Assembly: GCA_017514665.1 (NCBI GenBank)
Contig: JAFWIX010000005.1
Location: 26,991-90,990 of the forward strand
DNA length: 64,000 nt
Direction: 5' to 3'
DNA from: Candidatus Saccharimonadota bacterium
Lineage (GTDB): Bacteria; Patescibacteriota; Saccharimonadia; Saccharimonadales; Saccharimonadaceae
The notes beneath the pieces are model-generated. The model was not told where the DNA came from, made no database searches, and saw only the letters and a list, made by a program, of their open reading frames with translations. Both the position numbers and the translations under genes were made by a program. Positions 1,598 to 42,166 of the stretch are shown piece after piece. How positions within the stretch are numbered: position 1 is the stretch's first letter; each line of letters begins with the position of its first letter.

Positions 1598-3076
1598 ATG
1601 GTAAAGCGTCTATCGTTTTTAAGTGTTGCCGCCTTCGCAATGTTAATTGGTACTTTTGCTATTTCTAGCACATTTAATATAGGGGATGGTTCAGTTTCTG
1701 CCACAGCTAATGGCGCCACAGCCTCCCTCGAACTAGATTCAGTCATAGATATCTCAGCTCCTAGTACAGTAACTCTAAACTGTACCCCAGGCTCTACGGA
1801 TGCTACTTCTGAGTTATGTACTAGTAATGCTACAGTTACTGTTAATACTAACAATACTGCTGGCTATACTCTACAAATGAATACTACTAATGGTTCTTCT
1901 AATAGCCTTACTAATACTGGTATTACTCCTAATGCTACTATACCTACCTTATCTCAAGCTTATTCTGCTGCTAACTTTCCCGTAAACTCTTGGGGCTACA
2001 CTGGAGGAACCGATAAATCAAGTGAAACTGGTGGTTATAATTGCTCTACTAACTATTGTCCCATTCTAGCCTATAACAGCGACCCTACTACTTATTCTCC
2101 TAACCATATCATCAACCAAACCGATGCTCCATCTACCGCTTCTACCACCTCTATTACCTTTGCTGGTAAAGTCAACACTACCAAACCTTCTGGTACTTAT
2201 GCTACTTCTGTGACCTTTACAGCTGTAACTAACTATGTACCTCATCCTATTACTAATAGTATGAGTATGACAGACATAGATGCTAATACTTGTTCAGATA
2301 CACCACTAGAAACTACCTATACTGTAGTAGACCCAAGAGATAATAAATCCTATGCTGTAGCTAAACTAGCTGATGGCAATTGTTGGATGCAAGACAACCT
2401 TGCTTTAGACTTAGTCGCTTCGGGGAGCAACATCACTTCATCAAACACTAACGCTTCAGATACTTATCTAAACTACCTTAAAGGTAACAGTACTGGCACT
2501 ACTTCAGACCAATATCCCACTGCTGGAGTAAGCTATTGGACTAGTAGCTACAGCTATTCTGCTCCCCTTATTGCAATCAAAAACGCTAATGACGATACCT
2601 GGAATCCAGACACTGTAGCCTCCGTCACTTATGGCAATGGTAGTGGCAAAATTGGTATCTACTATAACTACTGTGCTGCTTCGGCTGGCTCATATTGCTA
2701 TGGTAATGGCACAAGCTCTACCGGCTCTCCCTCTTCAGACCCTAAATCCGGCACTCTCTACGATATAGACGCTGATATCTGCCCAGCTGGCTGGCATATA
2801 CCTACTACAGATTCTGGTGGTGAATACCAATATCTGTACAACACCGCCTACTCCTCTAATGCCACTAATTTCAGAAACGCTCTCTCTACGCCTCTTTCTG
2901 GCAACTTCTACGATGGCTTAGTGCTTGAACAAGAGTACGGGGATTTCTGGTCTTCTACTTGGTACAGCACAAATAGCATGAGGAGTCTCGATGTAGATTC
3001 TAATTATGTATATCTCCTCGATGGTTACGATCGCTATGATGGTTACTCATTGAGATGCGTAATAAACGGATCGTAG
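1598..3076 (+). CDS. Secreted FISUMP (Fib_succ_major)-domain surface protein, paralog 1
   Basis: Signal peptide, S/T-rich beta domain ending SGTYATSVTFTA, DPRDNKSYAVAKLADGNCWM, ICPAGWHIP, FWSST, C-terminal GYSLRCV. Confidence 0.85.
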   Translation: MVKRLSFLSVAAFAMLIGTFAISSTFNIGDGSVSATANGATASLELDSVIDISAPSTVTLNCTPGSTDATSELCTSNATVTVNTNNTAGYTLQMNTTNGSSNSLTNTGITPNATIPTLSQAYSAANFPVNSWGYTGGTDKSSETGGYNCSTNYCPILAYNSDPTTYSPNHIINQTDAPSTASTTSITFAGKVNTTKPSGTYATSVTFTAVTNYVPHPITNSMSMTDIDANTCSDTPLETTYTVVDPRDNKSYAVAKLADGNCWMQDNLALDLVASGSNITSSNTNASDTYLNYLKGNSTGTTSDQYPTAGVSYWTSSYSYSAPLIAIKNANDDTWNPDTVASVTYGNGSGKIGIYYNYCAASAGSYCYGNGTSSTGSPSSDPKSGTLYDIDADICPAGWHIPTTDSGGEYQYLYNTAYSSNATNFRNALSTPLSGNFYDGLVLEQEYGDFWSSTWYSTNSMRSLDVDSNYVYLLDGYDRYDGYSLRCVINGS

Positions 3077-3119
3077 CGGATTTAGGTTTTCTATATCTTC
3101 TGTATGCTATAATTACTCT

Positions 3120-4193
3120 ATGCGCGACTTGCAAAAACAAGCTGAAAACTTAAATGGCCAACTCAATGAACTTTGGCAAAAATTAAATCTTGACGAAAAA
3201 CTTGCTAAAATTACTAAACTAGAGGCCGAGGTTTCTGAGCCCGAAATTTGGACCAATCCTGAAAACGCCAAGAATAAAAACACCAAACTCGCCAAGCTTC
3301 AAGAAGAAACTCACGATTTTCTCATGCTCAAAACCCAACTTAACGATATCAACGAGCTTCTAGATCTCGAAAGCGCTAACTTAAAAACCGAAATCACCGA
3401 CCAGCTTGAAGCTATTGCCAAAAAACTTGAAGAGCTCAGCCAAACCCTCAAATTCACTGGCAAATACGACCACGGTGGCGCAATCTTGCGCATCACTTCT
3501 GGTGCTGGCGGTACCGAAGCTATGGATTGGGCTGGTATGCTCGAGCGTATGTATCTCAGGTTCTGCGAAAATCATCATTTCAAAGCCACTCAACTTGATC
3601 GCACCGTCGGTGAAGAGGCTGGTATCAAAACTGCCGTTTATGAAATCACCGGCCAAGATGCCTATGGCATGCTCAAGTCTGAACACGGCGTACATCGCCT
3701 GGTTCGCCTTAGCCCCTTCAATGCTAACAACCTTCGCCAAACTTCTTTTGCATTGGTAGAAGTCTTGCCCATCATTGATCAAGATACTGATTTTACTATT
3801 GATGAAAAAGATTTGCGCATTGATGTTTATCGCAGTGGCGGTCACGGCGGCCAGGGAGTTAACACTACCGATTCAGCGGTACGTATTACTCATATACCTA
3901 CCAACACTGTTGTTGCCATCCAAAACGAACGTTCCCAAATTCAAAACCGCGCTAAAGCCATGGAAGTTTTAAAAGGTAAGCTCATTCAAATGCAACAAGA
4001 GCAACATGCTCAGTCTATCGGCGAATTACGTGCTGGCGAATCCGCCGGTTGGGGCCAACAAATCCGCAATTACGTCCTTCAACCATATAAGTTAGTTAAG
4101 GATACCCGCACCAAATACGAAAGCAAAGACCCCGACGCCGTCCTTGATGGCAAGCTTGACGAGTTTGTTGACGCCTACTTGCGCTTATGCTAA
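3120..4193 (+). CDS. prfB: Peptide chain release factor 2
   Basis: [11 protein letters not shown] (GGQ), LVRLSPF (SPF anticodon mimic), WGQQIRNYVLQPY; continuous ORF. Confidence 0.97.
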   Translation: MRDLQKQAENLNGQLNELWQKLNLDEKLAKITKLEAEVSEPEIWTNPENAKNKNTKLAKLQEETHDFLMLKTQLNDINELLDLESANLKTEITDQLEAIAKKLEELSQTLKFTGKYDHGGAILRITSGAGGTEAMDWAGMLERMYLRFCENHHFKATQLDRTVGEEAGIKTAVYEITGQDAYGMLKSEHGVHRLVRLSPFNANNLRQTSFALVEVLPIIDQDTDFTIDEKDLRIDVYRSGGHGGQGVNTTDSAVRITHIPTNTVVAIQNERSQIQNRAKAMEVLKGKLIQMQQEQHAQSIGELRAGESAGWGQQIRNYVLQPYKLVKDTRTKYESKDPDAVLDGKLDEFVDAYLRLC

Positions 4194-4202
4194 AATAATA
4201 GT

Positions 4203-4958
4203 ATGATTCTACTTGACCGCGTCACGAAAATGTACCCGGGTGATAATGAGCCGGCCCTTGATAATGTCTCAATTCATATTGAGCCCAATGAATTTGTCTT
4301 TTTAGTGGGTAAATCTGGCGCTGGCAAATCTACTCTCATGAAAATGATTACCAAAGAAGAAATCCCCGACAGCGGCAAGATTATCATCGGTGGCATCGAT
4401 CTTGATTACGTCAAAAAGCGCCACATTCCTCATTATCGTCGTCGTATTGGCGTGGTTTTCCAAGATTTCAAACTCTTGCCGATGCGCACTGTTTACGAAA
4501 ACGTCGCGTTTGCTCTCGAAATTGCTGGTATGAGCAACAAAGAAATTCGCCGTACTGTACCCAAAGTTCTTGAACTCGTCGGTCTTGCCGATAAAGGCAA
4601 TAAATTTCCCGATCAACTTTCCGGCGGGGAACAGCAACGTGTCTCAATCGCTCGTTCGGTCGCTCGCCAACCCAAGATTCTAATTGCTGACGAACCTACT
4701 GGCAACCTCGACAAGCTGACTCGCGCCGAAATTATTGACCTTCTCCAAAAAATCAATGATTTCGGCACCACTGTGCTGGTCACTACTCACGACGAAAATA
4801 TCGTTAATCACTTACAAAAGCGTGTCATCACTTTGAAAGACGGCCGCATTATCGGCGACCAGAAACGCCATGGTGTTTATCGTCTAGAGACTGCCGGTCC
4901 AGCTCGTGCTAATTCTAACGATCGTCCATCCGCCGCTAAAAGAATAAAGAGTTTATAG
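4203..4958 (+). CDS. ftsE: Cell division ABC ATPase FtsE
   Basis: [27 protein letters not shown]; upstream of ftsX. Confidence 0.93.
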
Positions 4959-4967
4959 GGTTATCAT

Positions 4968-6014
4968 ATGACTAAAAAAGCAAATGTCAGCAACAAAGAA
5001 ATCAAGCACGCAATCAAACACGAACAGTCCGTGGTACGTGACCATCTCAAAACTCTCTCGCGCAATTCCAATTCGCACTTCTTCCTTACTTATGGTCGTA
5101 TCATTAAATATGGCACTTTTAGCTTCTTCCGCAATATTTGGTTATCTACCGCCGCCACTCTCGTCATGACCGTAACGCTAGTTATTTTGATGATTACCGT
5201 TTTTGCTAGTGTTGTTCTTTCGAGCACCGCCGCTAGCATGAAAGAAAAAATCGATATTACTGTTTATTTCAAACCCACTACATCTGACGAAACTCTTGTC
5301 GAGCTTTCCGAAATTATGAAAAAGGATAGCAATGTGCGTGAAGTTACCACTACTAATTCCGAAGTCGAAACCCAAAAAGCTCTCGAAGAACAAGGTGGCA
5401 ACTCCGACGTTTCTGACGTACTTTCAAGCGACGACATCAAAGAACTATTGCTCAGCGCCATGCCGGCCACCATGCGTATTTCGGTCTATGAACCCAACAA
5501 TCTAGACAGCGTTAAAAGCATCGTCGAAAACGACTCTACCTTCAAAGAAAATCTTGATACCAAAGAACCTTCATATGCCGCCAATCAAAACGAAATCAAC
5601 ACCATCACCAAATGGGCCAATGTTGCCAAAAATGGCGGTCTTATCCTTAGTGGGATCTTCTTAATCATTTCCATTCTGGTCATCTTTAATACCATTCGCA
5701 TGGCTATCTTCTCCCGCCGTGAAGAAATTTACATGATGAAACTAGTCGGTGCCGACAATACCTTTATCCGTGGTCCATTCTTGGTCGAAGCCGAATTCTG
5801 TGGTATTATTTCTGGTATTCTCGCTAGCCTGATTGCCGTGTTCGGTTTTAAGCTCGTTTCATCTAATCTCCAAAACTTCGGTGTCGATATCACTCCTATT
5901 GTTAATATTACCGATTCTAGCTTAGTTATCTTCCTCTTCCTTACCATGATTGCTCTTGGCATCATTATTGGTTCAATCTCTGCTCGTCTTGCCGTTCACA
6001 AGTACCTCCGTTAA
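4968..6014 (+). CDS. ftsX: Cell division permease FtsX
   Basis: 4-TM permease with RREEIYMMKLVGA...FIRGPFLVE motif. Confidence 0.9.
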   Translation: MTKKANVSNKEIKHAIKHEQSVVRDHLKTLSRNSNSHFFLTYGRIIKYGTFSFFRNIWLSTAATLVMTVTLVILMITVFASVVLSSTAASMKEKIDITVYFKPTTSDETLVELSEIMKKDSNVREVTTTNSEVETQKALEEQGGNSDVSDVLSSDDIKELLLSAMPATMRISVYEPNNLDSVKSIVENDSTFKENLDTKEPSYAANQNEINTITKWANVAKNGGLILSGIFLIISILVIFNTIRMAIFSRREEIYMMKLVGADNTFIRGPFLVEAEFCGIISGILASLIAVFGFKLVSSNLQNFGVDITPIVNITDSSLVIFLFLTMIALGIIIGSISARLAVHKYLR

Positions 6015-6053
6015 CCTTTGACGCTTACGCTTAAGTGTGATATAATGAAAAAT

Positions 6054-7172
6054 ATGAAGTTTCAACATAAACATCTAGTCTACCCAGTAATTTTCACTCT
6101 ATTAGCGGTACCAGTATTTCAGTTTTTTACAGCCGCTAAACCAGCGAACGCTACCACTTATTCGCCTTTCTGTACCAGCAAGACTTGTCGCGAAGCTGCC
6201 GACCGTGAGGCTGCTGCCCAGAAAAAAGCCGACGAACTTTCTAGCCAAGCTAACACTCTACAAGGCAAAGTCGACTCTTTGAATGCCGAAATTGCTGCCG
6301 TCGAAGCCGAAATTGCTTCCTATGAAGCTATCGCTAAAGATTTGGCCGAACAAATCAAAGTTACCGAAGCTAAACTTGAAAAACAACAGCAAGCCTTGGT
6401 TGATTTAACTGTTGAAATGCATTTAAATGAAGATCCTGATGCTATCACCATTCTAGCTAGTAGTGATAATTTAGGTGATTTCACTGAACGCAAAACTCGC
6501 AAAGAGACCGTCCAAGAACAAGTCGTGGCTGCCGCCAAAGAAGTTCGTCGTGTCAAAGAAGATTTAGCTCAGAAAAAAGCCAGTAATGATGCCATTATCA
6601 ACAGCAAAAGCAGCAAGCGTGCCGAAATCGCCCAAAAGCGTAATGAGCAAAACACCCTAATAGCTAACTACAAAGATAACGCCGATGCCTATAGTGCCGA
6701 TGCCGAAAAAGCTCGCAAAATCAAGGCCGAAGAAATCAACAAAGCCATTCGCGCTTCTAACAATTACGGCGCAGTTGCTAGTACTGGTGCCGATGCTAAC
6801 GGCAACTCTTATCCATATCGTGGCAAATGCCCCGGTATCAACCTTGCCTTCATTGCCTACGGCGGTTACGTCTGCCAATGTACTAGCTATGCCGGTTATA
6901 AAGTCGCCGAAGCCTATGGTTACTCTATTTCTGCCTGGGGCAATGCTAGCAACTGGGGTAATAGCGCTATCGCCCATGGTTTTCGTGTTGATAACAATCC
7001 CGCCCCTGGCACCGTTGCTTATTCTACCGCTGGTGCTTATGGCCACGTCATGTGGGTCGAATCTGTCAACGGTGGCACTATTACTCTCTCTGAATACAAC
7101 TATGTATACGGCGACTTCTCCCGTCGTAGCGGCGTCCCCGCTAGTGCTTATCGCTATATTCATTTTAATTAA
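6054..7172 (+). CDS. Coiled-coil + CHAP murein hydrolase (PcsB/CwlO-like FtsEX partner)
   Basis: Signal peptide, long coiled coil, CHAP motifs QCTSYA, WGNASNW, YGHVMWVE; start placed at ATG 6054 after TTGACG-17-TATAAT (6018-6046). Confidence 0.85.
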   Translation: MKFQHKHLVYPVIFTLLAVPVFQFFTAAKPANATTYSPFCTSKTCREAADREAAAQKKADELSSQANTLQGKVDSLNAEIAAVEAEIASYEAIAKDLAEQIKVTEAKLEKQQQALVDLTVEMHLNEDPDAITILASSDNLGDFTERKTRKETVQEQVVAAAKEVRRVKEDLAQKKASNDAIINSKSSKRAEIAQKRNEQNTLIANYKDNADAYSADAEKARKIKAEEINKAIRASNNYGAVASTGADANGNSYPYRGKCPGINLAFIAYGGYVCQCTSYAGYKVAEAYGYSISAWGNASNWGNSAIAHGFRVDNNPAPGTVAYSTAGAYGHVMWVESVNGGTITLSEYNYVYGDFSRRSGVPASAYRYIHFN

Positions 7173-7191
7173 TTTGTGCTAAAATAAGAAG

Positions 7192-8370
7192 ATGGAAAAA
7201 CCCGTAGAGCGTAAAGTTAGTCTTGGTGGCGCCATTATTGGCAGTGCAGTCGCACTGTTTGCTGGCGTCTTAATTGGCATTAACTGGCATTACTTCGCTA
7301 ATTTTTTGCCATATTTAGGTATTGATGTAATCCAAGAAAAAGATTGGTCAGCCCTCAATGAAGTTTATTCTACTCTTGAAAATAATTACGACGGGGAACT
7401 TGATCAAGACAAGCTCACTGATGGCGCCAAAAAAGGTCTCGTCAAAGCCGTTGGCGACGAATACACCACCTATATGACTGCCGAAGAGGCCAAAGAGTTC
7501 AAGAAGGATCTCGAGGGTGACGTCGGCTCTGGTATTGGTGTCGAAATCGCTACCCGTGATGGCTATGTCCGCGTCATTCGTACTCTTCCAGACAACCCCG
7601 CACGCGAAGCTGGGATGCTGGCTGGTGATATTTTCTATAAAATCGACGGCGAAGAAGTTTATGACTTGCCCAGCGACGAAATCGCCACTAAAATTCGCGG
7701 CGAAGAGGGAACTGAAGTCACCGTCACCGTAGTGCGCAACGGCGAAGAAAAGACCTTTACTATGAAGCGTGAAAAAATTAATAATGTTTCTGCTTATATT
7801 AATTATGATGGCAAAACCGCTATTCTTAAAATTGTTCGCTTTGACAATAGCACGGGTGATTTGGTACAAAAACTAGCCAAAGAAGCCAAAGATAAAGGTT
7901 GTAATAAAATCATTCTTGATCTCCGTGGCAACGGCGGTGGCTATGTCAACGCCGCCCAAGAAGTACTCAGTCTCTGGCTTGACGGCGATGCAATCGTCAC
8001 TCAAAAATCCATTCATTTCAGCGACAACACCACTTACGCCTCACGCGGCAAAGCCATTTTGAAAGATATGAAGACTATCGTTTTAGTTGATGGCACCACC
8101 GCTTCGGCTTCCGAAATTACCGCTGGTGCTCTTCAAGATTACGGTAAAGCCAAGCTTGTTGGCGAAAAAACTTACGGTAAAGGTGTGGTGCAGACTCTGC
8201 TAAACCTCTCTGGTAATTCATTGCTTAAAGTTACCACTGCTCACTGGTATACTCCTAACGACAACAATATTGACGGTAACGGCATCAAGCCTGACATTGA
8301 AGTCAAAAATACCTACGATGACACCAATCACGGACGTGATCCTCAGCTTGACAAAGCCAAGAAATTATGA
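7192..8370 (+). CDS. ctpA: S41 carboxyl-terminal processing protease
   Basis: PDZ (GIGVEI), LDLRGNGGG, TASASEI, TYGKGVVQ. Confidence 0.9.
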   Translation: MEKPVERKVSLGGAIIGSAVALFAGVLIGINWHYFANFLPYLGIDVIQEKDWSALNEVYSTLENNYDGELDQDKLTDGAKKGLVKAVGDEYTTYMTAEEAKEFKKDLEGDVGSGIGVEIATRDGYVRVIRTLPDNPAREAGMLAGDIFYKIDGEEVYDLPSDEIATKIRGEEGTEVTVTVVRNGEEKTFTMKREKINNVSAYINYDGKTAILKIVRFDNSTGDLVQKLAKEAKDKGCNKIILDLRGNGGGYVNAAQEVLSLWLDGDAIVTQKSIHFSDNTTYASRGKAILKDMKTIVLVDGTTASASEITAGALQDYGKAKLVGEKTYGKGVVQTLLNLSGNSLLKVTTAHWYTPNDNNIDGNGIKPDIEVKNTYDDTNHGRDPQLDKAKKL

Positions 8371-8387
8371 TATAATAAAAGGACCTT

Positions 8388-9650
8388 ATGAAAATCGCCA
8401 TCACTTCAGCAGTTTACTACCCTATGACCAACGGGATTGCTACTTTTGCTCATAATTTAGCCCTTGGCTTGGCTAATAAGGGCCATGAGGTAATGGTAAT
8501 TTGCCCCAGTTTTACTGGCAAATCCCACCAAGTCAAACGCCACGGCGTTACTACAGTCTATCTCAAATCTATTCGCATTCCATTTTATCCTGATCAAATT
8601 AATAAAGTTCCCGATAAAAAAGAAATTTTAGGTAAGGATCTACCTCGCCTCGCCTATCGCTATGGTCTCTGGGTGTCACCAAATCCATACCTAAGTGTAC
8701 GTCGTGCACTCAAAAAATTCAAACCCGACGTCATTCATAGTCAAACCTCTGAAATGATCGGCCAAGCCGCTCTAACCTATGCTGAGCGTCATCACATTCC
8801 AATTGTGGCTACTGGACACACTTACCCAGATACCGTCACTGGCCAATTTAAGCTTTTAAAGCCCATCAAACGCCCCGTTGATGCCGCTTTAGTCAAATAC
8901 ATGGCACGCTACCTCAAGCACAGCGATTACGCCACCATGCCTACCGAAATCGCCATTACCGACCTCACCCCCAAGAACAAACGTCGTTTCAAGGTACCAA
9001 TCGAAGCCCTATCAAATGGCGTTGATTTATCTAGCTTTAAGCCCGGTAAGGCTAATATTAAAACCTATTTAAAGTATAGATTGCCCACCGATCGCCCAAT
9101 TGTACTTTATGTTGGCCGTATTGACCCCGAAAAAAGTGTTTCCTTGGTGCTTGAAGCCTTTGCTAAGCTTTTAGAAAACGTGTCTGAAGCTTTATTAGTA
9201 GTGGTAGGGGAGGGGACTGACCGCGAACACCTCGAAGACTACGCCAAATATCTTGGCATCGATAAAAATATTAAGTTTCTCGGCCGTATTTTGCCACCCA
9301 CCATCACCGACATCTATCGTGCTGGTTCACTCTTTGTCACTGCCAGCGAAATTGAAACTCAGGGTATTGTTTTAATCGAAGCCGCTGCTACTGGTCTACC
9401 GTTAGTCGCTGTAGATGCTGGCGCAGTCAGTGAAATCTGTCACAATAATAAAAACGGCTATCTCTGTCAGCCCAAGGATGTCGACGGCATTTATGAAGGC
9501 ATGAAGAAAATCCTCAAAGATAAAGACCGTCAACACAGGTTCAGTCAAAACAGCCTGAAATTTGCTAAAGAGCACGACCTGAACAATACCATAGGTCGTT
9601 TTGAAGAAATCTACCAAACTGTTATTGACAGCAAAAACTCTAGCTCTTAA
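8388..9650 (+). CDS. GT4 family glycosyltransferase
   Basis: YVGRIDPEK, ETQGIVLIEAAATG (EX7E) motifs. Confidence 0.88.
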   Translation: MKIAITSAVYYPMTNGIATFAHNLALGLANKGHEVMVICPSFTGKSHQVKRHGVTTVYLKSIRIPFYPDQINKVPDKKEILGKDLPRLAYRYGLWVSPNPYLSVRRALKKFKPDVIHSQTSEMIGQAALTYAERHHIPIVATGHTYPDTVTGQFKLLKPIKRPVDAALVKYMARYLKHSDYATMPTEIAITDLTPKNKRRFKVPIEALSNGVDLSSFKPGKANIKTYLKYRLPTDRPIVLYVGRIDPEKSVSLVLEAFAKLLENVSEALLVVVGEGTDREHLEDYAKYLGIDKNIKFLGRILPPTITDIYRAGSLFVTASEIETQGIVLIEAAATGLPLVAVDAGAVSEICHNNKNGYLCQPKDVDGIYEGMKKILKDKDRQHRFSQNSLKFAKEHDLNNTIGRFEEIYQTVIDSKNSSS

Positions 9651-10392
9651 CGAATTCAGCAATTTTTTGCGCCACTAATTCTGGCACTTCATAGTTTAAG
9701 AGGTGTCCTTCTCTGGGCAAGAACTCTGTTTTACATTTCACTCCGCGTTTTTCTAATTCTGTCGCAAGTTTTTCAGTCTTTGCTTTCTTAATTAAATGAT
9801 CTTTGTCACCAGCCAAAAGCAATGTCTGCTGTTTAAATTTAAAGTCACCAACTTTATATTTCATTGAAAATTTTGCCACCTTTCTAACGTCACCACGGCT
9901 AGCAAACTTACGGCCACTTAAACACGATACCGCTAGCATTTCCCAGAATTTATCCCAGTCATTGGTATTTTTAAGATAAAGCGTGCATACTAAAGTCACT
10001 AAATCACTTGGCGCTATCGCAATTAAGGGCGCCAAACTAGTAAATACTCTAGCTGGCCTAGCCGATATTGGCGCCAATAGCACTAGTTTATCTGCTATCA
10101 CTTGAGTATATTCCGCTGCCGCTGCCGCCGCCACAATCGAGCCCATGGAATGACCTACTAATATCGGTTTCTTTAACTTCTGCTTTTTAATATAATTATT
10201 CACATAATCAGCATAAGTCTCGGGCGTATATTCCGCCATTGCTCCTGCTTTACCAAAGGGTGGTAAATCTGGAATAGCTACTTCCAATCCTTGTTTTTTG
10301 AGAGCCTTAGCCACATCCTCTAGCCCTTCACTAGTTCCTCTGAATCCATGCAAAAGCAGTACGGTTGGCCTCTGTTTTTTCGGCGTTTTCAT
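9640..10392 (-). CDS. Alpha/beta hydrolase
   Basis: LLHGF, GHSMG nucleophile elbow, GHLL catalytic His. Confidence 0.88.
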   Translation of the reverse strand: MKTPKKQRPTVLLLHGFRGTSEGLEDVAKALKKQGLEVAIPDLPPFGKAGAMAEYTPETYADYVNNYIKKQKLKKPILVGHSMGSIVAAAAAAEYTQVIADKLVLLAPISARPARVFTSLAPLIAIAPSDLVTLVCTLYLKNTNDWDKFWEMLAVSCLSGRKFASRGDVRKVAKFSMKYKVGDFKFKQQTLLLAGDKDHLIKKAKTEKLATELEKRGVKCKTEFLPREGHLLNYEVPELVAQKIAEFVKS

Positions 10393-10405
10393 GCGCGCTC
10401 CAATC

Positions 10406-10612
10406 TTACTTTTTTAGTGACTTCAAAGCCTTTTTGATAGCTGGACGGTCAAAACCCACAATTCGCTCACCATTGATTTCGGTCACTGGCACTACACTAA
10501 TCGAAGGATCTTCCTTAGCGCTAACTTCTTTATATTTAACACCTTGCTCATCCAACCAAGCCATCAAAGCGTGGCAATATGCGCAAGTAGTGGTGGTATA
10601 TACTTTTATCAT
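10406..10612 (-). CDS. Glutaredoxin/NrdH-like redoxin
   Basis: CAYC motif, VPVTEING, IVGFD. Confidence 0.85.
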   Translation of the reverse strand: MIKVYTTTTCAYCHALMAWLDEQGVKYKEVSAKEDPSISVVPVTEINGERIVGFDRPAIKKALKSLKK

Positions 10613-10681
10613 AAACTAATTATAGCACATTCAAAAGTTTATAAGTTTGAATAACATCGCTAGAAAAATTCCTAACCTTCG

Positions 10682-12166
10682 CTACGACCCACTCCTTAGG
10701 CACCTCAATGAGTTGCCGTTGACGCGATTGTTGGTATTGGACGGATACACAGTACTGGCATAGACGAGGAGGTAGCTCATATTGCTCGTACCGTACCAAG
10801 TAGAAGACCAGAAGCCGCCGAACGAACCCTGATTGCGCGCCGAGTCATCGTAGAAGAGGCCAGAGAGAGGCGTAGAGAGAGCGTTTTTGAAGTTAGTTTG
10901 GTTGGCAGAGTAGGCGGTATTATATAGGTAGTAATATTCACCACTACCAGAAGTAGTAGTAGGCATATGCCAACCAGCTGGGCAGATATCGGCGTCTATG
11001 TCGTAGAGAGTATCAGATTTAGGGTCTGATTCGGGAGAGCCGGTAGAACTTGTACCATTACCCCAACAATATGAGCCGGCCGAGGCGGCACAGTAGTTAT
11101 AGTAGACACCAATCTTGCCACTACCATTACCATAAGTAACAGAAGCTACGGTGTCTGGGTTCCAAGTATCGTCATTGGCGTTCTTAATAGCAATAAGAGG
11201 AGCGGAGTAGCTATAACTACTAGTCCAATAAGCTACTCCAGCAGTAGGGTATTGGTCTGAAGTAGTACCAGTATTTACACCTTTAAGGTAGTTTAGATAA
11301 GTATCTGAAGCGTTAGTGTTTGATGAGGTGATGTTGTTTTTAGAAGCAACTAAGTCTAAAGCTAAGTTATCTAGCATCCAACAATTACCATCAGCGAGTT
11401 TTGCTACAGCATAGGATTTATTGTCTCTTGGGTCTACTACAGTATAAGTAGTTTCTGTTGGTGTATCTGAACAAGTATTAGCATCTATGTCTATCATACT
11501 CATACCATTAGTAATGGGATGAGGTACATAGTTAGTTACAGCTGTAAAGGTAACAGAAGTAGAGTAGGTGCCAGAAGGTTTACTTATATCTACTTTAGCG
11601 CCAAAGGTAATGTCAGTATTTGAAGTAGTGGCAGGAGTATTAGTAGCTTTAATTACGTGGTTTGGCGCATAGTTAGAGGAAGTAGATTCGTAAGCTAACA
11701 CTGGGCAGTAGTTTGATGCACAGTTATAACCACCGGTCTCACTTGATTTATCTAGACCTCCAGTGTAGCCCCATGAGTTTACTGGAAAGTTTGATGAAGA
11801 ATAGGCTTGGCTTAGTGTAGGAATAGTGGCAGCAGGAGAAGCTGCAGAATTAGTAAGGGCTGTAGGAGAACCATTAGTGGTATTCATCTGCAATGTATAG
11901 CCAGTAATATTATTAGTACCTACACCAATAGAAGCTACTGTAGTACAAAGCTGTGCAGCAGCTGCTGTAGCTCCGGGAGTACAGTTAAGTGTAGCAGTAG
12001 ATGGAGCAGAGATATTAATTACACTATCTACATTTAACTGAACTTCAGTGTCTGTACTAGCGGAAGATTCTGCATAAGTAAGATTAATATTACTATTAAG
12101 GGCAAATAAACCAGAAAGTACAAAAAGGCTCATGATAGTTAGTCTTAATATATTCTTCTGCTTCAT
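10682..12166 (-). CDS. Secreted FISUMP-domain surface protein, paralog 2
   Basis: About 91% aa identical to paralog 1 over ~228 central residues; ends GNSLRCLRSGS; start placed at MKQKNILR (12166), downstream of TTGACA-18-TATAAT (12227-12198). Confidence 0.85.
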   Translation of the reverse strand: MKQKNILRLTIMSLFVLSGLFALNSNINLTYAESSASTDTEVQLNVDSVINISAPSTATLNCTPGATAAAAQLCTTVASIGVGTNNITGYTLQMNTTNGSPTALTNSAASPAATIPTLSQAYSSSNFPVNSWGYTGGLDKSSETGGYNCASNYCPVLAYESTSSNYAPNHVIKATNTPATTSNTDITFGAKVDISKPSGTYSTSVTFTAVTNYVPHPITNGMSMIDIDANTCSDTPTETTYTVVDPRDNKSYAVAKLADGNCWMLDNLALDLVASKNNITSSNTNASDTYLNYLKGVNTGTTSDQYPTAGVAYWTSSYSYSAPLIAIKNANDDTWNPDTVASVTYGNGSGKIGVYYNYCAASAGSYCWGNGTSSTGSPESDPKSDTLYDIDADICPAGWHMPTTTSGSGEYYYLYNTAYSANQTNFKNALSTPLSGLFYDDSARNQGSFGGFWSSTWYGTSNMSYLLVYASTVYPSNTNNRVNGNSLRCLRSGS

Positions 12167-12286
12167 ATCTGTTTTACGACCTTGTTTATACATAATCATT
12201 ATACATCTCAACAGAGACAAATGTCAATAAATATTGTCAAAATTACAACATTTTCTAAATACTTCGTCCGGTGATATAATTAAAAT

Positions 12287-16503: not shown

Positions 16504-19500
16504 TTAAAAACTACCTCCACCGCCGCCACCAGCCCCAAAAGCATTAGGGTTCATCAAATCACCCAAATAAGCATACGAGTAATGGCTCGGTGGAGCTAAT
16601 TCTCTACAACCAGGCCAATAATCGGTATAGCCGTTATGCCATGACGCTTCGCAAATCACAATCTTTTTGCCACCATCACTCACACCCATTACTACACCTG
16701 TATGATTAGGGCTGTTTGTACTAAATACTGCATATGGCTGCGGTTCGTTTCCAGTTTTAACTCCATGTTCGCTAGCTAACTTATTGACAGTATCAGATCC
16801 TTGGCGCAACCCAACACCTTTCGGGCCTAATGTTGTATATCGATTTGCAAACCATTGCGAAAACGCTGAACAGTTATTTAATGTCCCATGAGGCGAACAG
16901 CCACCACTAGGGCATTGGATCATTGCGCCCTCAAACATATACGTGCTCTTCTTCTCCTTTTTAGCGGCTTCCTTACGATAGCCAGATTCCATCCACGCTT
17001 TGGCCTCCGCCAATGTCATACCACCCTCTTTCAAACCAGTACCCCCTGTACTATCGCCCACCTCTTCGCAATAGTCGCAATTATCTTCAGCTGCTTTCTT
17101 TTCTTCCACTTTACCTTTGTAGCGAAAAACATGAAAGCCGCTCAAAACTTTTTTAACTTCTTTGTCAATCGCTCCGTAAGCTTTGTAATAATGTCCTTCT
17201 GACAAGTACCCCTTACCATCTACTTCCACGTATATTGCAGCATGTCCTTTTACGTTACCGGGCCTAATCAAAACATCGCCCGACTGATAATCAGATACCT
17301 TTTCTATTTTTACTTCCTCCCAGTTTTCCGTATCTTTCTGCAATTGTTTTTGAATCCACGACGGGCTACGATGTACTTTTTCGGTATCAATTACGCCAGC
17401 ATATTTTAAGACGGTAGTTGCATAAATAGAGCAGCTCGCCCCATCATTTGAAGTACCATACTTATACTTCTTTTTCGTAATTTCGTCAAAATACTTTCTA
17501 CCGGCTGGAGTCCAGTTGCCCTCTTTCGTGCTTCTGTTTACTTTATATTTAGATTTTGCTGTTCCTTTTGGCCAACCAAGTTCTAACGCCGCCGCCGCTA
17601 TATTACCAGTACCTCTTGCGCTTTCACCAGTTGTCGTACTAGTCTCTGTACTAGTTTCCGTACTATTCGTCGTACTGCTTGAAGCCTTTAAACTATTTGA
17701 GGTTCCGGCATTTTTTAACATTTCTTCGGTGATTACGGTCTGTTGCTCTTTGGCGTTCTTAGGACGCAAAGCCCAGGTAACACGTTCGTCGGAAGACTCC
17801 TCCACTGCCAAATAAGCTCCTGCTTTTCCATTATATTTTCTCTTCATATGGGACTGGACACCATAATGTTTATTGCCTATTTTACCTATATAAACCCAGA
17901 CGTGCCCTTCACGCAACGCTACATCACCAGGTTGGAAATCATCCAATGAGGATGTTTTTATAACGTCCCACTTTTTATTTCCGCCGTCTTTCGCAAGAGG
18001 AATCATGCCAGCACCCAAACCGCCAGGAAAATTCTTGTCAACGCCAGAATATCTCACGACGACTGCAGCACCAATATCGCAAGCAGCCCCTGAAGCACGC
18101 TGACCATTCCCGTGCCCCTTAAACACTGCATCATTCGCTGCTTTAAAGTTTGCCGTTGGATGACCACCATGCCAAGCTCGGTCTTTATCAGAAACATCTA
18201 TTGGATGTGCCAAACATATTGCCGTAGCCACCACATCCATATTGTTCTGTGCGCAATTACTGCCGCTGGACCCAGCAACACATTTTGGCGTACCTTGAGT
18301 ACGATAAATACGATAATTATCATTTCCACCAAAGAAGTTCTTATAGCCAGCCCAATAACCTGGATCGTTTTCTCCTGCTATCGACGCCGCCAAAATATAT
18401 CCCTGACCATCACGCTGCCCATAAATTTCGATATGTGAATCGCCCTTTACACGGATATCTCCTGGTTGATAAGTCTCTTCCTTTGAAGCATCGCCATTCA
18501 CTAATGTATATGTCTCAGGGTGATTCTTCATATATTCTTCTTGGGTACTAACATAGCCATATGGAAAATCACTATCAACACCAGATGCCCTCACTACTGT
18601 AGCTACATAATGTGTACAAGCTTTTCCGTGATCAACACAAGTACCCGGGCATTTCGCCTCTTCTTGTGCCTTTAGATACGCTTCAGTTGGTCCTTGTTTT
18701 GCTGAATCCATCGGTTGATCTGCTAACTCCCACGCCTTATCGTGCAAACTTGAAGTGACGTCGCTATTTGATGCTCCCACCGTAGATGACGATTCGCCGT
18801 TACTAATAAAAGTTCTACCAGATTGTCTGCTATATATCTCATTGGCCCGTTTACGGCGATTAGACATATTCTCGCCATTTATTTTGGCAGGGTCTACGCA
18901 GTCCGCACAACGTTCTACGCTTTTAGCGAAATAATTTGCCGCATCGTCAGGAGAATTCTTTTTATAAAGTTCCTGATAGCTCTTATCTATCTCGGACTTC
19001 AAAAATTCTATTTCCGCTTGATACAACTTATTTGCGTCTTCGTGACCAACTTTTTCAATAAACTGATCGCCAGAAAGTCCACCATAGGTTGACCCTTCTT
19101 CAAGATATTTGACTAAGCTAGGAAATCTCTTTTTAACGTAATTAGCCATTTCTGGTCGACGTCCACCATCCCACTGAATCAGACCCAAGCCCTTGCCAGA
19201 ATCTTTATCCCAGATTGAGCTCGAAAAACCATTGCCAGTACCTTGGTGACGGCTCGGGCCTAGACCGCTCTCGCCCACCATATTGCCCATCACGCCAGCT
19301 GCTTGTTCTTCCTTCATGAAGCTTGTTAACCCAGACCACACTTTTTCTTCAGCCGTAGTACCAGATATTGAAACTATACCACTCAAAAAACTATTGCCAC
19401 TACTTTCGGCCGTGCACGGTTCATAGAATACGATTCTGTTTTGTGAAAAAATCGTCTGCTCTTCTTTTATTAGAGGGTTTTCTTCGGCAAAAGCTAACTG

Positions 19501-19644
19501 GTTTGATAAGCATGATTTCGCTACTTTGAGATTTATCGTTCCGATAATTTTTGTAATTTCATTACCACTCAAAATTATACCAGATGCCAAAAACACTACT
19601 AATATCAAACCAAAGATTTTATGTTTTTGCACAAAATTAAACAT
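16504..19644 (-). CDS. Secreted multidomain peptidoglycan hydrolase: phage-tail-lysozyme-like domain plus four NlpC/P60-CHAP-like domains
   Basis: Signal anchor; [22 protein letters not shown]; four Cys...His pairs (KACTHY/SHIEIY, AACDIG/GHVWVY, ASCSIY/GHAAIY, NNCSAF/NHTGVV). Confidence 0.8.
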
Positions 19645-28564: not shown

Positions 28565-30682
28565 ATGAAGGTCATTAAAAACAAACATTTTAGCGTATAT
28601 AATTTTAGGTTATCCAAGGTCAAGTTAGCCTCAGTTTTTGGTAGTTTGGCATTATTGATTATGGGATTATTTATGGTACCTAATTTTGCACCAGAAGCTA
28701 CGCATGCTGAAGGCGCTAATGCAGATCCTACTATTTCGATTATTCCAGCTGGTGATTTAGAATTAGACGTTAATCCTACCGCTAGTGGTAACTTTGGTTC
28801 TGTTTCCGCTAACGTTTCGGTTAGCACTACTAATACTACCGGTTATACCTTCACTATGAGTACAGTAGGTACTAGTACTGATCTTACTAATAGTAGGATA
28901 GATTATACTCAGTCTGGCAACCAAAATCTTAAGATTACTAATCTTTCTGCCTCTACTGCTCAGTCTAGCTTTGCTAACAACAAATGGGGCTATAACGTTT
29001 CTAAATCAAACACTTATATCAAAGGTGCTGCTAATACTTATGTACCAGTACCAAACAGTAATAGCCAACAATCCGATAAAGAAATTGAAGTTACAGACAC
29101 TACTGGCTCTAATACTTATACCTTTAGATATGGCGTTAAAGCTGATTTAGCTCTGCCTTCTGGAGACTACAGTAATACTTTAGTCTACTCAGCTACGGCT
29201 AATCCCTTGCCTACTATGCAGAATTTTGATTATGCTGCTTGCCAAGCTCTTACTGCAGATCAGACTGTCACTTTGTATGACTCACGTGACGATACCCCTT
29301 ATACCGTAGCTAAACTCCAAGATGGTAACTGCTGGATGACCCAGAACCTAGAATTAGGCAAATACGGCACGTCCATGAATCTTACCAGTGACACTTCTAA
29401 TGTTTCATCTTCTGGTTATACTCTCAACTTCTCTTATGCTAATAACTCCGTTTATAAAGGCAACTCCAACAAATACGGTAATTACTATAGCTGGCCTCAA
29501 GCTACTGCTGGTTCTGGCACCACCACAGAGGGCGAAGACGCTCCATATGATATTTGTCCTAAAGGATGGCGTCTTCCTTCCGCTTCGTCTACCGGCGCTA
29601 CGGACAGCGAATTTTACACTATGCTTAACCACTACATTGCTACTGGTACCTGGTCTAGCAACTATTGGTCTGATGTTAACACATCTAATCTTACTAACGC
29701 CCCTGTATCCCTTGTATTCCCGGGCTATATGGATTCTTCTAACGGCTCCATAAGCGATCAAAATAGCAGAAGTGATTGGTGGTCTGCTACCGCTTCCGGT
29801 GTTTCTGGTGCATTTGATTTGCACGTTTACAAAAATAGTACAAACAGCAGTGTGAGTCCAAGAATTCGATATACTAACACTGGTGGTTTTTCTGTTCGTT
29901 GTTTACTCGACAAGCCTGTTATAAAAAATGGCATGTACATGCAGGATGTCACCCAGGAGCAAGTTTCTAATACCCCAACAGATGTAACATATACTCTCAA
30001 AGACAAACGTGATGAAAAAGAATATACTGTGGCCAAGCTCCAAGACGGCAACCTCTGGATGACACAGAATCTTGCTCTAGGTGATTCTACCGCTATGAAT
30101 CTCACTCAAGCTAATTCTAATGTAGGCCCTTCTGGCTTCACTCTCCCGGCTAGCGTGACTGAAGGTAGTTGGACCGGCTCTGACGATAACCCCGAATTCT
30201 TTAATTATGCCGGTAACTACGCATCTCAACAAGCTACTAATAAATACGGTAATTACTACAACTGGCCAGCCGCTACTGCCGGTTCTGGTACTAGTGCCAC
30301 CACTTCTGGTGACGCCCAGTATTCCATCTGTCCCAAGAACTGGCATCTTCCTTCTGCTGGCAACAGCTATACTGCTAGCGAGCAGTATATTATGTTAAAC
30401 AACTATATTACTACTGGCACCTGGAATTCTGGTACCTTTCCAAGCTGGTCTGATGTCACTATCACCGAATACGCAGACGCTCCTATTTCGCTTGTGTTCG
30501 CAGGCTACTACTCCGGAAATTTGAACGACCAGGGCAGTAGCAGCAATTGGTGGCAATCTACTGCTTACGATAATGACGATGCCTACTACTTTGGTGCGCG
30601 TAGTAATGGCCGCGTGACTCCGCGATTTAGCAGCTTTAAGCGTCTCGGTTTCTCCGTTAGGTGTTTAATGCCTGGCGCGTAA
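28565..30682 (+). CDS. Secreted protein with two tandem FISUMP domains (paralog 3)
   Basis: Two AKLQDGNxWMTQNL...ICPKxWxLPS...WW...GFSVRCL units; TTGACA-18-TAAAAT promoter upstream. Confidence 0.85.
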   Translation: MKVIKNKHFSVYNFRLSKVKLASVFGSLALLIMGLFMVPNFAPEATHAEGANADPTISIIPAGDLELDVNPTASGNFGSVSANVSVSTTNTTGYTFTMSTVGTSTDLTNSRIDYTQSGNQNLKITNLSASTAQSSFANNKWGYNVSKSNTYIKGAANTYVPVPNSNSQQSDKEIEVTDTTGSNTYTFRYGVKADLALPSGDYSNTLVYSATANPLPTMQNFDYAACQALTADQTVTLYDSRDDTPYTVAKLQDGNCWMTQNLELGKYGTSMNLTSDTSNVSSSGYTLNFSYANNSVYKGNSNKYGNYYSWPQATAGSGTTTEGEDAPYDICPKGWRLPSASSTGATDSEFYTMLNHYIATGTWSSNYWSDVNTSNLTNAPVSLVFPGYMDSSNGSISDQNSRSDWWSATASGVSGAFDLHVYKNSTNSSVSPRIRYTNTGGFSVRCLLDKPVIKNGMYMQDVTQEQVSNTPTDVTYTLKDKRDEKEYTVAKLQDGNLWMTQNLALGDSTAMNLTQANSNVGPSGFTLPASVTEGSWTGSDDNPEFFNYAGNYASQQATNKYGNYYNWPAATAGSGTSATTSGDAQYSICPKNWHLPSAGNSYTASEQYIMLNNYITTGTWNSGTFPSWSDVTITEYADAPISLVFAGYYSGNLNDQGSSSNWWQSTAYDNDDAYYFGARSNGRVTPRFSSFKRLGFSVRCLMPGA

Positions 30683-39478: not shown

Positions 39479-39513
39479 CCCTAGTAAAAGCATGATATAA
39501 TAATATCAATCAC

Positions 39514-39590
39514 GGTTCCTTAGCTCAGTTGGCTAGAGCGTACGATTCACATTCGTAAGGTCACAGGTTCGAGCCCTGTAGGAACCACCA
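39514..39590 (+). tRNA. tRNA-Val(CAC)
   Basis: GGTTCCT acceptor, anticodon loop TTCACAT, GTTCGAG, CCA. Confidence 0.97.
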
Positions 39591-39645
39591 AACGGTTTAT
39601 GAAATTATCTTCAACTATTTCGCAATCTATAAATGCCTGTTAAAT

Positions 39646-39672
39646 CCCTCGTTAAAATAGAGGGTTATTTTT
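39646..39672 (+). terminator. Probable terminator downstream of tRNA-Val
   Basis: CCCTC-N9-GAGGG followed by TTATTTTT. Confidence 0.5.
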
Positions 39673-39769
39673 ATGCCATTTTTGCGACAAAAACATGCCA
39701 AAAATCGTAATTTACCTCTATAATTTTATCTGTTAAATCCCCAATAATTTGGTCAAAATATTTACGCAT

Positions 39770-39795
39770 AAAAAATGCCGCCAGATGCTGGCGGC
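39770..39795 (-). terminator. Intrinsic terminator ending the minus-strand non-coding unit
   Basis: GCCGCCAG-CAT-CTGGCGGC-A-TTTTTT on the minus strand. Confidence 0.8.
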
Positions 39796-40323
39796 TGGGA
39801 ACCCTTTCGGGTAGTGAAAACAATATTTTATCTTTTTCCTATTTTTTTCCAGATTGAGCAGTACTACTCTGCAAAGCTCTTTTGCAATCTGAATGATTGT
39901 ATGGGCAAGTATAAAACATCTTCGCATTCTCTTCTGATGATATGATCATAGTCATACGTTCTTCCAAAAATGTTTTTTCACTTAAAGTACTACTACCGAC
40001 AAAGAATATGGCTAAAGCCACTAAAGATTCCTCTCGTTTTGCCAAGCATTCCCGCTTAGACGACTTCTAATATTTCCCGCTATGACGGGAGCAATAAGAA
40101 GTTGCACTCGTCTAACGAGCTACGGTTCAGCCTTAAGACTTGTTTTCTTTTCGACTACGCATAGATTTCAGGATTCCATCCGGCTATGCCGTACGATCAA
40201 CTGAGGTTATCGTATCGAGTTTCAATAATCAGTGCATGATTATCAGAAAACTTACCTTACAAACAAACGTATCAGAATCATTCTTAAGTTACGCGACTCT
40301 TCGTCTCCCATAACTCGGAGCAT
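39770..40323 (-). ncRNA. Candidate large (~555 nt) highly structured ncRNA
   Basis: Bounded by a consensus promoter and an intrinsic terminator; no credible long ORF; more than a dozen hand-identified helices including long-range pairs. Confidence 0.65.
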
Positions 40324-40329
40324 GCATTA

Positions 40330-40358
40330 ATTATAGCACACTTTGGCAAAAAAGTCAA
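40330..40358 (-). promoter_or_regulatory. Sigma70 promoter for the candidate ncRNA
   Basis: TTGACT-17 nt-TATAAT with extended TG. Confidence 0.8.
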
Positions 40359-40447
40359 TAGTTTTTATGCTTTTTCCGACAAACAGTCAAATATTCTCCC
40401 TATATTCTGTTAAAACCTGGTTAATTAACTCCCACCATTTTTTTAGT

Positions 40448-41596
40448 TCAGTTCAGATCGGATTCGCCATATTTTTTATAAAACTCCTTAATCATCGGGA
40501 TCTGATTAATATACTTGTCCATGCCCACATATTCGCCCACCAACCCCCTACGATCCTTGGCGTCCCCCCAATATCCCCCTCCCTTGCGACCGTCTTGGTA
40601 AGCCATACCAGGAATATGATACTCATACAATGGGGTGACTAATGAGCCAGGTTCTACAAATTCTTCTTTTACCCCTAAAGATGAGATCTTTACGTTTTGA
40701 CACTCAACTCCGCCCACCCAAGCTCGACCTTCATCGTTTTGAAAGATAAGATATTTTAAACTCCCATCCTGTGACAAAAAGCTACGCGCAATAACGTCCC
40801 CATAAATATCACTTTTAGTCCGCCAGCTATCAATACAATTATCAAAAACAGGGGATAAGTTTTCTGCAATCCGACATTCTGCCGGATCTGCGATTTCAGC
40901 ATACAATGCAACGTCGTGCCGTTCTTGGCTTTTATCTATATGTCCCGGAGTTAAACTATCATTCTCAAAACCAGCACGCTTGTGAACAAAACCCGATATG
41001 TCACCGCTTTCCGAAGTTGTCACCTTATAGTCCTTAACAAGCTTATTCAGCGCTCCTAATGGCACACCTTCAACCATCGGGTGTTCTAAAAGCACTCTCT
41101 CTATCGCCGACTGCAATTCAAATGGAGCATTAATTGCATTTTCACCATAATCAGATTTGCAATAATGACTATTGTTTAATTTTGGCAAGAATCGCCAAAG
41201 CATAGAAGAATTACTGCGATAAAATAGTCGTGGCTCAAATTTTTCTTCGTCCTCTGTTTTTACATAAATTACAAGGTGAGGGCGCTCTCCGCATTGCATA
41301 ATATCGGATAAATAGAGCTCCGCCCCATCAATTTTCCCAATCTCGTATTTTGGAGCCGCCTCCTCGGCAACATACTCTCTACCTATCTTACTATTAAAAT
41401 GCGTCTTTTGCAAAACTCCTTCTATTTCATCTTTAGATAATTCTTTATACTCGAACCTCTTATTCTCACTATTGTCCTGGCGCTCTGTTTTAAATTTCTC
41501 AAAATCAGTCGATGCCGCCCCCATAGACTCTAAATCATTCAGCTCTGTTTCGTTATAATTTGCAATACCTTCATAATTTGTTGAGATTTTTTCCAT
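40448..41596 (-). CDS. Hypothetical protein (382 aa)
   Basis: Long ORF with acidic N-terminus and LFYRSNSSMLWRFLP..HYCKS motif; family not recognised. Confidence 0.75.
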   Translation of the reverse strand: MEKISTNYEGIANYNETELNDLESMGAASTDFEKFKTERQDNSENKRFEYKELSKDEIEGVLQKTHFNSKIGREYVAEEAAPKYEIGKIDGAELYLSDIMQCGERPHLVIYVKTEDEEKFEPRLFYRSNSSMLWRFLPKLNNSHYCKSDYGENAINAPFELQSAIERVLLEHPMVEGVPLGALNKLVKDYKVTTSESGDISGFVHKRAGFENDSLTPGHIDKSQERHDVALYAEIADPAECRIAENLSPVFDNCIDSWRTKSDIYGDVIARSFLSQDGSLKYLIFQNDEGRAWVGGVECQNVKISSLGVKEEFVEPGSLVTPLYEYHIPGMAYQDGRKGGGYWGDAKDRRGLVGEYVGMDKYINQIPMIKEFYKKYGESDLN

Positions 41597-41684: not shown

Positions 41685-41692
41685 CATGAGGG

Positions 41693-42166
41693 TCACAGGA
41701 GCTTGATATAGTTTTCGTTAATCCAGACAATTCCGTCCGGATCGTCTTTTATTTTCTCTGGAAACCAGCTCTTTCCTTCAGCTGTATCTAGAATATCAGA
41801 CACCTTCAAGCCAATGTATTTTCCATTGGTATCCAGACTTTTATCCATAGTATACACCTTCGAAACTTCAAGAGTGAAGTTACACTCTTTGGTAGTTCCA
41901 AAAGAGTTGCTCTCAGGAGAAGCGGCTGCAGCGATTGGTTCCGAGCGTACGTTCGGACAGTCATCGATGATCTTTACGCAAGATGCATTGAGCACTGTCT
42001 TCTCGTACAGGTCGCCATAATCTCTGCTGATTTCATGGTTCGTGCACACGTATTTAATTGCACAACCAAATACAAACGCTGCTGCCAGGAACAGCAACGC
42101 AGCAATAACGATTGTAGCCATACCCTTCAGACCAGTACGCCTGAGGTAATTATCGATATTTTTCAT
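41693..42166 (-). CDS. Membrane-anchored protein with possible SH3b-like domain
   Basis: N-terminal TM; PNVRSEP ... VWINENYI resemble the first and last strands of SH3b. Confidence 0.6.
   Translation of the reverse strand: MKNIDNYLRRTGLKGMATIVIAALLFLAAAFVFGCAIKYVCTNHEISRDYGDLYEKTVLNASCVKIIDDCPNVRSEPIAAAASPESNSFGTTKECNFTLEVSKVYTMDKSLDTNGKYIGLKVSDILDTAEGKSWFPEKIKDDPDGIVWINENYIKLL

Follow-up and report, generated by a model that had tools for sequence, protein, structure and literature searches.

Two genes for predicted secreted FISUMP-domain proteins, referred to here as paralogs 1 and 2, form an inverted pair in a 64,000-nucleotide (nt) stretch of a Candidatus Saccharimonadota genome (assembly GCA_017514665.1, contig JAFWIX010000005.1, positions 26,991 to 90,990 of the forward strand), which we call the window. 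In our judgement, the 3′ tips of these genes are probably variable regions of a known target class that were written by a diversity-generating retroelement (DGR), lie in a region without a DGR, and now persist as fixed orphans reshuffled by recombination. Paralog 1, taken from the list of open reading frames (ORFs), spans 1598..3076 on the forward strand and encodes 492 amino acids (aa), with an N-terminal hydrophobic segment consistent with a signal peptide; paralog 2 spans 10682..12220 on the reverse strand and encodes 512 aa (503-505 aa in public gene calls). Their tips are located at 2900..3076 (forward strand) and 10682..10861 (reverse strand), respectively. Each tip is preceded by a middle block (2213..2899, forward strand, in paralog 1; 10862..11551, reverse strand, in paralog 2), which is ~87% identical between the two genes at the nucleotide level and serves as a recombination substrate.

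In the scenario that we propose, both genes would encode secreted Saccharibacteria surface proteins ending in a FISUMP (C-type-lectin-like) domain, the last ~50 codons of which would form the ligand-binding surface. A reverse transcriptase (RT) would copy a template RNA rich in AAY codons (Y, C or T) with errors at adenines, and the complementary DNA (cDNA) would overwrite the tip. The tip of paralog 2 would have been written fairly recently, from a template that also served at least four other tips in close relatives, while that of paralog 1 would stem from an older event or a different template, followed by drift through ordinary mutation. Present-day variation would arise from homologous recombination between paralogs, with modules being swapped and the middle block undergoing gene conversion; recombination may also invert the 9-kb segment between the inverted genes, thereby exchanging their tips. 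Because the retroelement is absent from the region and the cis element is missing, the tips would now behave as fixed, orphaned variable regions.

Codon-position pattern of the tips

The footprint was detected by comparing the DNA of close homologues in a set of five tips, which comprises paralog 2, three different tips of a four-gene tandem array (L101), and protein P0006 (locus L117). Pairwise differences at the first, second and third codon positions numbered 15-19, 11-16 and 3-9 in the 51 codons of the tip, versus 9-50, 6-29 and 45-94 in the ~228 codons of the middle block of the same genes. For paralog 2 against its relatives, the corresponding counts were 18, 11 and 5 of 51 in the tip and 11, 7 and 59 of 228 in the gene middle. 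The third base was invariant in 38 of 49 tip codons compared with 140 of 420 gene-body codons; among the codons whose amino acid varies, it was invariant in 24 of 30 in the tips and in 36 of 152 in the bodies (Fisher p = 8e-9). The base that is kept is column-specific, as observed in 18 of 23 hypervariable columns (13 with C and 5 with T, counted by eye in the codon alignment). Additionally, an A is present in at least one tip at 47 of the 52 variable first- and second-position sites.

The variable codons of paralog 2 end in C or T at a ratio of 16:8, compared with 96:222 in the gene body (p = 2e-4). In a leave-one-out comparison, 88 sites were invariant among the other four tips; the tip of paralog 2 mismatched only 4 of them, and 1 of the 39 that are third positions. 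We read this footprint as the signature of an AAY-rich template overwriting the tip, a signature that paralog 2 appears to carry and that would have been made by a DGR in this lineage; the original prediction, a reading of the window's letters that preceded this work, had already proposed such a template, and for paralog 2 the few mismatches and the excess of C agree with it. Across 67 homologues, the variable columns are rich in Tyr, Ser, Asn, Asp and Gly, with Lys, Glu, Gln, Met and Trp accounting for 5.2% of residues there versus 13.2% elsewhere in the domain.

The tip of paralog 1 behaves differently. It departs from the five paralog-2-type tips at 20 of the 82 sites that are invariant among them, including 14 of 38 third positions, and it shows a scaffold change from GSA to GLV and the deletion of a codon. 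Its variable codons end in C or T at a ratio of 9:14, like those of the gene body. As adenine specificity in the window tips was scored by proxy, namely the codon-position pattern, it can be stated that this proxy fits paralog 2 and does not fit paralog 1. Judging from these comparisons, the tip of paralog 1 seems not to carry the template signature, or no longer to carry it, in line with the earlier suggestion that this gene is an older or retired target; we therefore describe it as a decayed or differently templated variable region.

Sister-lineage cassettes and the gene content of the locus

Tips of the Fib_succ_major/DUF1566 type are a published class of DGR targets (PMC5758913; PMC4159848), and bacteria of the candidate phyla radiation (CPR) are known to carry DGRs (PMC8144416; PMC10221324). 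Using the Asn-rich peptide of the inferred template (..LSGNFNNGSANNQGSNGNFWSSTWN..NNNNRNNGNSLRC..) as a query against 5.8 billion proteins, we obtained only 13 matches, all of them 65-114 aa long and Asn-rich exactly at the variable positions. Three of the 13 were traced to contigs; all three contigs belong to Saccharibacteria, and in all three the match adjoins an RVT_1 gene. Three more cassettes were reached through RT homologues, and all six loci checked are canonical DGRs. Since the query retrieved genuine templates that lie beside RTs and share the same scaffold, this result constitutes a successful prediction of the DGR model.

Mismatches between the template region (TR) and the variable region (VR) fell at template adenines in 39 of 40 cases in L125, 17 of 20 in L122 (GCA_017512165.1, JAFWGZ010000078.1), 23 of 23 in both L123 and L132, 23 of 24 in L142 and 16 of 18 in L147. 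Each of the six cassettes consists of an adjacent, matched target of 544-990 aa, an accessory ORF of 307-397 aa, an RT and a template, and in all six VR/TR pairs the 45-60 nt that follow the stop codon, including a GTTCC motif, are common to target and template. The RTs carry the motifs IGNLTSQ and YVDD; at E <= 1e-20 their family counts 1987 members, many of which take their names from Saccharibacteria metagenome-assembled genomes (MAGs). These cassettes share habitat and phylum with the window; over the C-terminal domain, their targets and the paralogs have 39-43% identity, and the scaffold is homologous codon for codon (LSTPLSG.F..GSA..QGS.G.FWSST....M..L.V....V.P.....R..G.S.RC). Unlike the window's paralogs, these targets adjoin an accessory gene, an RT and a template. 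The six templates were considered as cognates of the window's tips and all were rejected, as each shows 28 or more non-A mismatches with every tip of this lineage.

The accessory ORFs are located at 9898-11091 in L122, 11337-12260 in L123, 2453-3430 in L125, 6355-7320 in L132, 9075-10004 in L142 and 9027-10004 in L147, and in all six cassettes the ORF ends at or overlaps the start of the RT. The three of the six accessory proteins that were scanned gave no Pfam match, Avd-type families included; Avd is ~130 aa long, and the accessory proteins are unlike it in length. Separately, a contig of Candidatus Nanosyncoccus (L020, ~2449-2520) has a FISUMP gene followed by a post-stop GTTCC element of the L142 type, with no RT within the 8 kb examined; this gene may be a remote DGR target in another genus.

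The original prediction stated that RT and template are missing from the window, and our searches confirmed it. With both tips as queries, blastn-short across the window returned the two genes and no third, template-like copy. None of the 38 window ORFs scanned against Pfam matched RVT_1, a regular-expression scan of the window for YxDD yielded no RT, and tblastn with three of the Saccharibacteria DGR RTs and their accessory proteins (307-397 aa) gave no match in the window or at 12 related loci. No RT, accessory gene or template occurs in the ~18 kb beyond the two ends of the window (~8 kb on the upstream side and ~10 kb on the downstream side) or in the 10 kb on either side of the related paralog loci examined. 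The locus of P0039, a larger protein with a FWSSTW..SLRC tip, was considered as an RT site and rejected, as no RT is present there.

The cis element of the sister cassettes is also missing, the post-stop GTTCC element being found in 0 of the 2 window tips and in 0 of 13 other tips of the lineage. Both paralogs share TCGTAGCG..TTAGG..TTTTCTA after the stop codon, which had been proposed as an element similar to the initiation of mutagenic homing (IMH) site. This proposal did not hold, as the motif is common to the paralogs only and is unlike the 45-60 nt element of the six real VR/TR pairs; from its sequence, it looks like an ancestral gene end and not a homing element. No sequence examined, the real targets among them, has a significant hairpin after the stop codon. 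At ~57 nt past the stop codon of each paralog-2-type tip (L101 7352-7420 and the equivalent positions after each array gene; L117 11549-11620), we observed a decayed paralog-1-type gene end, AATAAACGAATCGTAGCAGGCTTAGG, which corresponds to AATAAACGGATCGTAGCGGATTTAGG in the window. The comparison gives the impression that a tip cassette was inserted in front of an older gene end.

In wider searches, no Asn-rich ORF with the scaffold of this lineage was found among the 5.8 billion proteins, and viral contigs yielded chance matches only, with no FISUMP relative. A scan for the pattern TTCTGGTCTTCTNCTTGG in contigs of representative genomes, in which the window's species is not represented, gave 100 mostly chance matches, only four of which were Saccharibacteria FISUMP genes, at ~50% identity. 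In the JGI metagenomes, a template-specific pattern had 0 matches and a general pattern had 2; as this collection holds only two related tips and thus barely samples the lineage, its lack of a template is uninformative.

With regard to the domain itself, the FISUMP identity given in the original prediction was supported by one profile and not by another. Both paralogs exceed the cut-off of 41.65 bits for TIGR02145 (NCBIfam FISUMP), with 49.4 bits for paralog 1 and 43.1 bits for paralog 2; the Pfam PF09603 cut-off of 33.9 bits was not reached, paralog 1 scoring 19.4 bits and paralog 2 having no match, although many homologues of the paralogs carry PF09603. The nearest named proteins come from Saccharibacteria MAGs, and the runs that hold the window's genome are gut and bovine-gut metagenomes. 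A structure model of the C-terminal 257 aa of paralog 2 reached a mean predicted local distance difference test score (pLDDT) of 95.7; the full-length model, with a pLDDT of 51.5, was unusable, and a sequence search of the PDB with the paralog protein gave no match. One public call of paralog 1 (P0255) reads both TAG codons through as Gln and yields a 504-aa product, which is an artefact of the genetic code used by the gene caller and not a real variant. A third, distant FISUMP gene (28565..30682, forward strand; 705 aa), found by tblastn, is ~30% identical to the paralogs, consists of two homologous halves and scores 100.8 bits with TIGR02145.

Among known systems, the DUF1566/Fib_succ_major DGR targets ("CLec2", category d of Wu et al. 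2018, with Legionella LdtA as the type example) are one of the closest to the paralogs. The TIGR02145 family, the secreted or surface location, the variable region at the extreme C-terminus ending in ..R-C, and the scaffold alternating with AAY-derived codons are common to both. The window differs from these systems in that it has no RT, accessory gene, template or post-stop element, and in that its tips are static in populations.

Stability and recombination of the tips

Both tips are stable across samples. For each tip, runs from four studies yielded one contig that covers it and its unique flank with 0 differences, and the tips are unchanged even in a bovine-gut strain whose flanking genes are 1-3% diverged. 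The exact protein of paralog 1 is found on 7 public contigs and that of paralog 2 on 9. Other contigs matched at 80% likeness belong to other paralogs and are alike only in the scaffold half. No template-like contig at 80% likeness or more was found in the runs that hold the genome; contig matching would probably have caught a template, given that a full-length tip only 82% alike was recovered in run X12. The ongoing hypervariation implied by the original prediction thus left no sign in these data, and a DGR would no longer be acting on these two genes.

A decayed variable region was found beside an apparently active DGR in the sister lineage. Of the 35 mismatches between the second VR of L123 (13652-13845) and its template, 24 lie at adenines and 11 at other bases. 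By analogy, this decaying target, which is of a kind with the remote and degenerate VRs described in DGR surveys, seems a good counterpart of paralog 1, with which it shares the excess of non-A changes; it differs in having a cassette within 4 kb, whereas no cassette is in sight at the window's tips.

The homologues display extensive reassortment. Genes a and d of the L101 array carry identical tips on N-termini that are 71% identical, genes b and d have 99%-identical N-termini and 77%-identical tips, and P0003 and P0007 share the same tip on different bodies. Taken at the level of sequence, the FISUMP paralogs appear as mosaics in which N-terminal, middle and tip modules have been reassorted.

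The longest exact stretches common to the two window paralogs are 48, 35 and 34 nt. Contig L105, from another sample, matches the window at 100% identity before paralog 1 and within this gene as far as position 2271; past the 34-nt stretch that is identical in both paralogs (2272..2305 on the forward strand, equal to 11459-11492 on the reverse strand), the contig matches paralog 2, its tip and the next 600 nt downstream, again at 100% identity. The contig contains no N and shows a single clean crossover, which lies in ordinary homologous coding sequence (~87% identical) and not at a short specific site. An inversion of 2306-11458 through recombination between the inverted paralogs would yield such a contig, which suggests that this ~9.15-kb segment (2306..11458, with no strand assigned) is a candidate invertible segment; it holds prfB, ftsE, ftsX, genes for CHAP and S41 peptidases, a glycosyltransferase and a hydrolase. 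Alternatively, L105 could be a chimeric assembly. No recombinase or invertase families were present among the Pfam matches of the window ORFs scanned.

These features recall the pilE/pilS type of gene conversion and inversion between inverted paralogs, in that modules are reassorted, a conserved block flanks the variable end and one recombinant isomer is seen. They differ in lacking a dedicated recombinase or a short site, and the evidence for the paralogs comes from assemblies only.

Alternative readings and significance

Several observations weaken the case for the tips as orphaned, DGR-written regions. Some of them concern the contrast between the two window genes. Codon-level alignment reproduced the counts of the original prediction, with 19 of 228 residues and one codon indel differing over residues 206-433 and 31 of 59 residues and one 3-nt indel differing over residues 434-492 (2900-3076 versus 10861-10682), and the fixed scaffold that it described (TTC TGG TCT TCT ACT TGG TAC; ATG; CGC; TCA TTG AGR TGC; TCG TAG) is present in both genes. 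Nevertheless, the 205 N-terminal residues are diverged too, with 23 of 60, 39 of 60 and 58 of 85 identical in successive segments, which weakens the contrast: the middle block is therefore the unusually similar part, and the tip is not uniquely dissimilar. Among the 28 amino-acid-variable tip codons, those ending in C or T (NNY) number 23 in paralog 1, as originally counted, and 24 in paralog 2 instead of 25. Neither count is significantly enriched (p = 0.29 and 0.051, respectively) over gene backgrounds of 0.76 and 0.70, in keeping with the original caveat that these genes are Y-ending-biased throughout.

At the third codon position, the tips of paralogs 1 and 2 also disagree in 25 of 59 cases, and of the 28 variable codons only 13 have the same third base in both genes. 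Adenine mutagenesis cannot give 25 third-position differences in 59, so one DGR template cannot have produced both tips, and the idea that they are two copies of one template was rejected. The DGR evidence drawn from the window itself, that is, the NNY bias and the contrast between the two genes, thus amounts to what the gene background gives; the tips are DGR-like in kind on account of the relatives' tips and the sister cassettes.

Further points of this sort concern the missing parts, the fold and the sampling. The cognate template and RT were found nowhere among the sequences searched; consequently, DGR authorship of these tips rests on the footprint and on homology with the sister systems. 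Foldseek comparison of the C-terminal model of paralog 2 gave weak matches, the best being 4EPS, a Bacteroides fimbrial protein that is the DUF1566 example (E = 0.12), followed by snaclecs, Langerin and the carbohydrate-recognition domain of the mannose receptor (E = 1-7), a direction expected for C-type lectins. The inversion is represented by one contig, compared with 7-9 in the window's arrangement, and no reciprocal product occurred among the top homologue matches. The population data are assembled Logan contigs, which drop rare variants, so that low-frequency diversification could escape them. Finally, third-position divergence is 6-18% among paralog-2-type tips and 20-41% among gene bodies; templating would therefore be recent relative to the divergence of the paralogs, which, as far as the sequences go, fits a DGR surviving elsewhere in the genome as well as a lost one.

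The latter point leads to the alternative that survives best, according to which the tips are active remote targets: a cassette elsewhere in the ~1-Mb genome would rewrite paralog 2, and perhaps other paralog-2-type tips, in trans at low frequency, with paralog 1 retired. The five tips show nearly complete agreement at non-variable sites and third codon positions, against 10-25% divergence of their gene bodies, as would be expected if a single template kept resetting them. Gut Saccharibacteria very commonly carry DGR RTs, the tip of the array paralog L101_c occurs in the same runs as the window at about twice its depth, as expected for two copies, and the span of genome inspected, window and flanks together, is ~90 kb. 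We nevertheless hold this alternative to be possible and not favoured. The six real cassettes have an adjacent target and the 45-60 nt GTTCC element, which the window tips lack; four studies and 7-9 assemblies show the same tip sequences; and exact duplicate tips occur on different paralogs of one array. No template-like contig at least 80% alike was seen in the runs holding the genome, although the 82%-alike tip was found in X12, and no RT lies within 10 kb of any related paralog locus examined. Additionally, none of six accessioned NCBI RTs fell in the accession range of the related MAG IKF33, in a comparison that is incomplete. Survival of the cognate cassette anywhere in the genome seems to us rather unlikely.

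A two-tier diversification system in an episymbiont with a reduced genome is also conceivable, albeit unlikely. In such a system, one DGR located elsewhere would write in trans at least 5-6 dispersed FISUMP paralogs that lack the post-stop element, and recombination, by array conversion and inversion, would join the tips to other N-termini; or the DGR would have been lost and a stored library of tips would be in use.

Least probable, in our view, is that no retroelement was ever involved and that point mutation under strong diversifying selection on a lectin-like surface, together with gene conversion, shaped the tips, with codon usage and a bias towards Tyr, Asn, Ser, Asp and Gly accounting for their NNY appearance: the genes are indeed 70-76% NNY throughout, the NNY enrichment of paralogs 1 and 2 is not significant, recombination and mosaicism are rampant, and binding sites rich in these residues occur in many lectins and antibodies, but amino-acid selection leaves unexplained the column-wise kept third base (13 C and 5 T in 18 columns) beside scrambled first and second positions, the stronger conservation of third positions in the tip than in the gene body, and the excess of C over T against a 2:1 T-rich background, and the inferred-template peptide found genuine templates beside RTs on the same scaffold.

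Apart from the FISUMP genes, the window contains several other features. A protein with a phage-tail-lysozyme domain (1046 aa) is encoded at 16504-19644, a ResIII helicase with four HNH-associated repeats at 43365-45746, a TrwB/VirD4-like coupling ATPase (968 aa) at 50773-53679, and a KwaB-like protein of the Kiwa defence family (PF16162, E = 5e-9) at 62147-63121. The region 38000-42200 has a low G+C content (0.36 versus ~0.43) and lies next to the unannotated ORFs 40448..41596 and 41693..42166, both on the reverse strand and with no Pfam match; it may be acquired DNA.

The surface adhesins of Saccharibacteria, which live attached to host bacteria, probably determine the hosts that are open to them. 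The conclusions reached here, with orphaned DGR-written tips as our preferred reading, fall within known biology. For annotation, they imply that an active DGR cannot be assumed from DGR-like tips alone, and they offer an example of orphaned DGR targets for which a template could be predicted from paralogs alone. In ruminant-gut Saccharibacteria, FISUMP tips represent a major family of DGR targets, with ~2000 RT relatives and 6 of 6 cassettes canonical, and some lineages carry many already-diversified tips with no cassette nearby. These tips provide a concrete system for the study of how DGR-written diversity is kept, retired and recombined.

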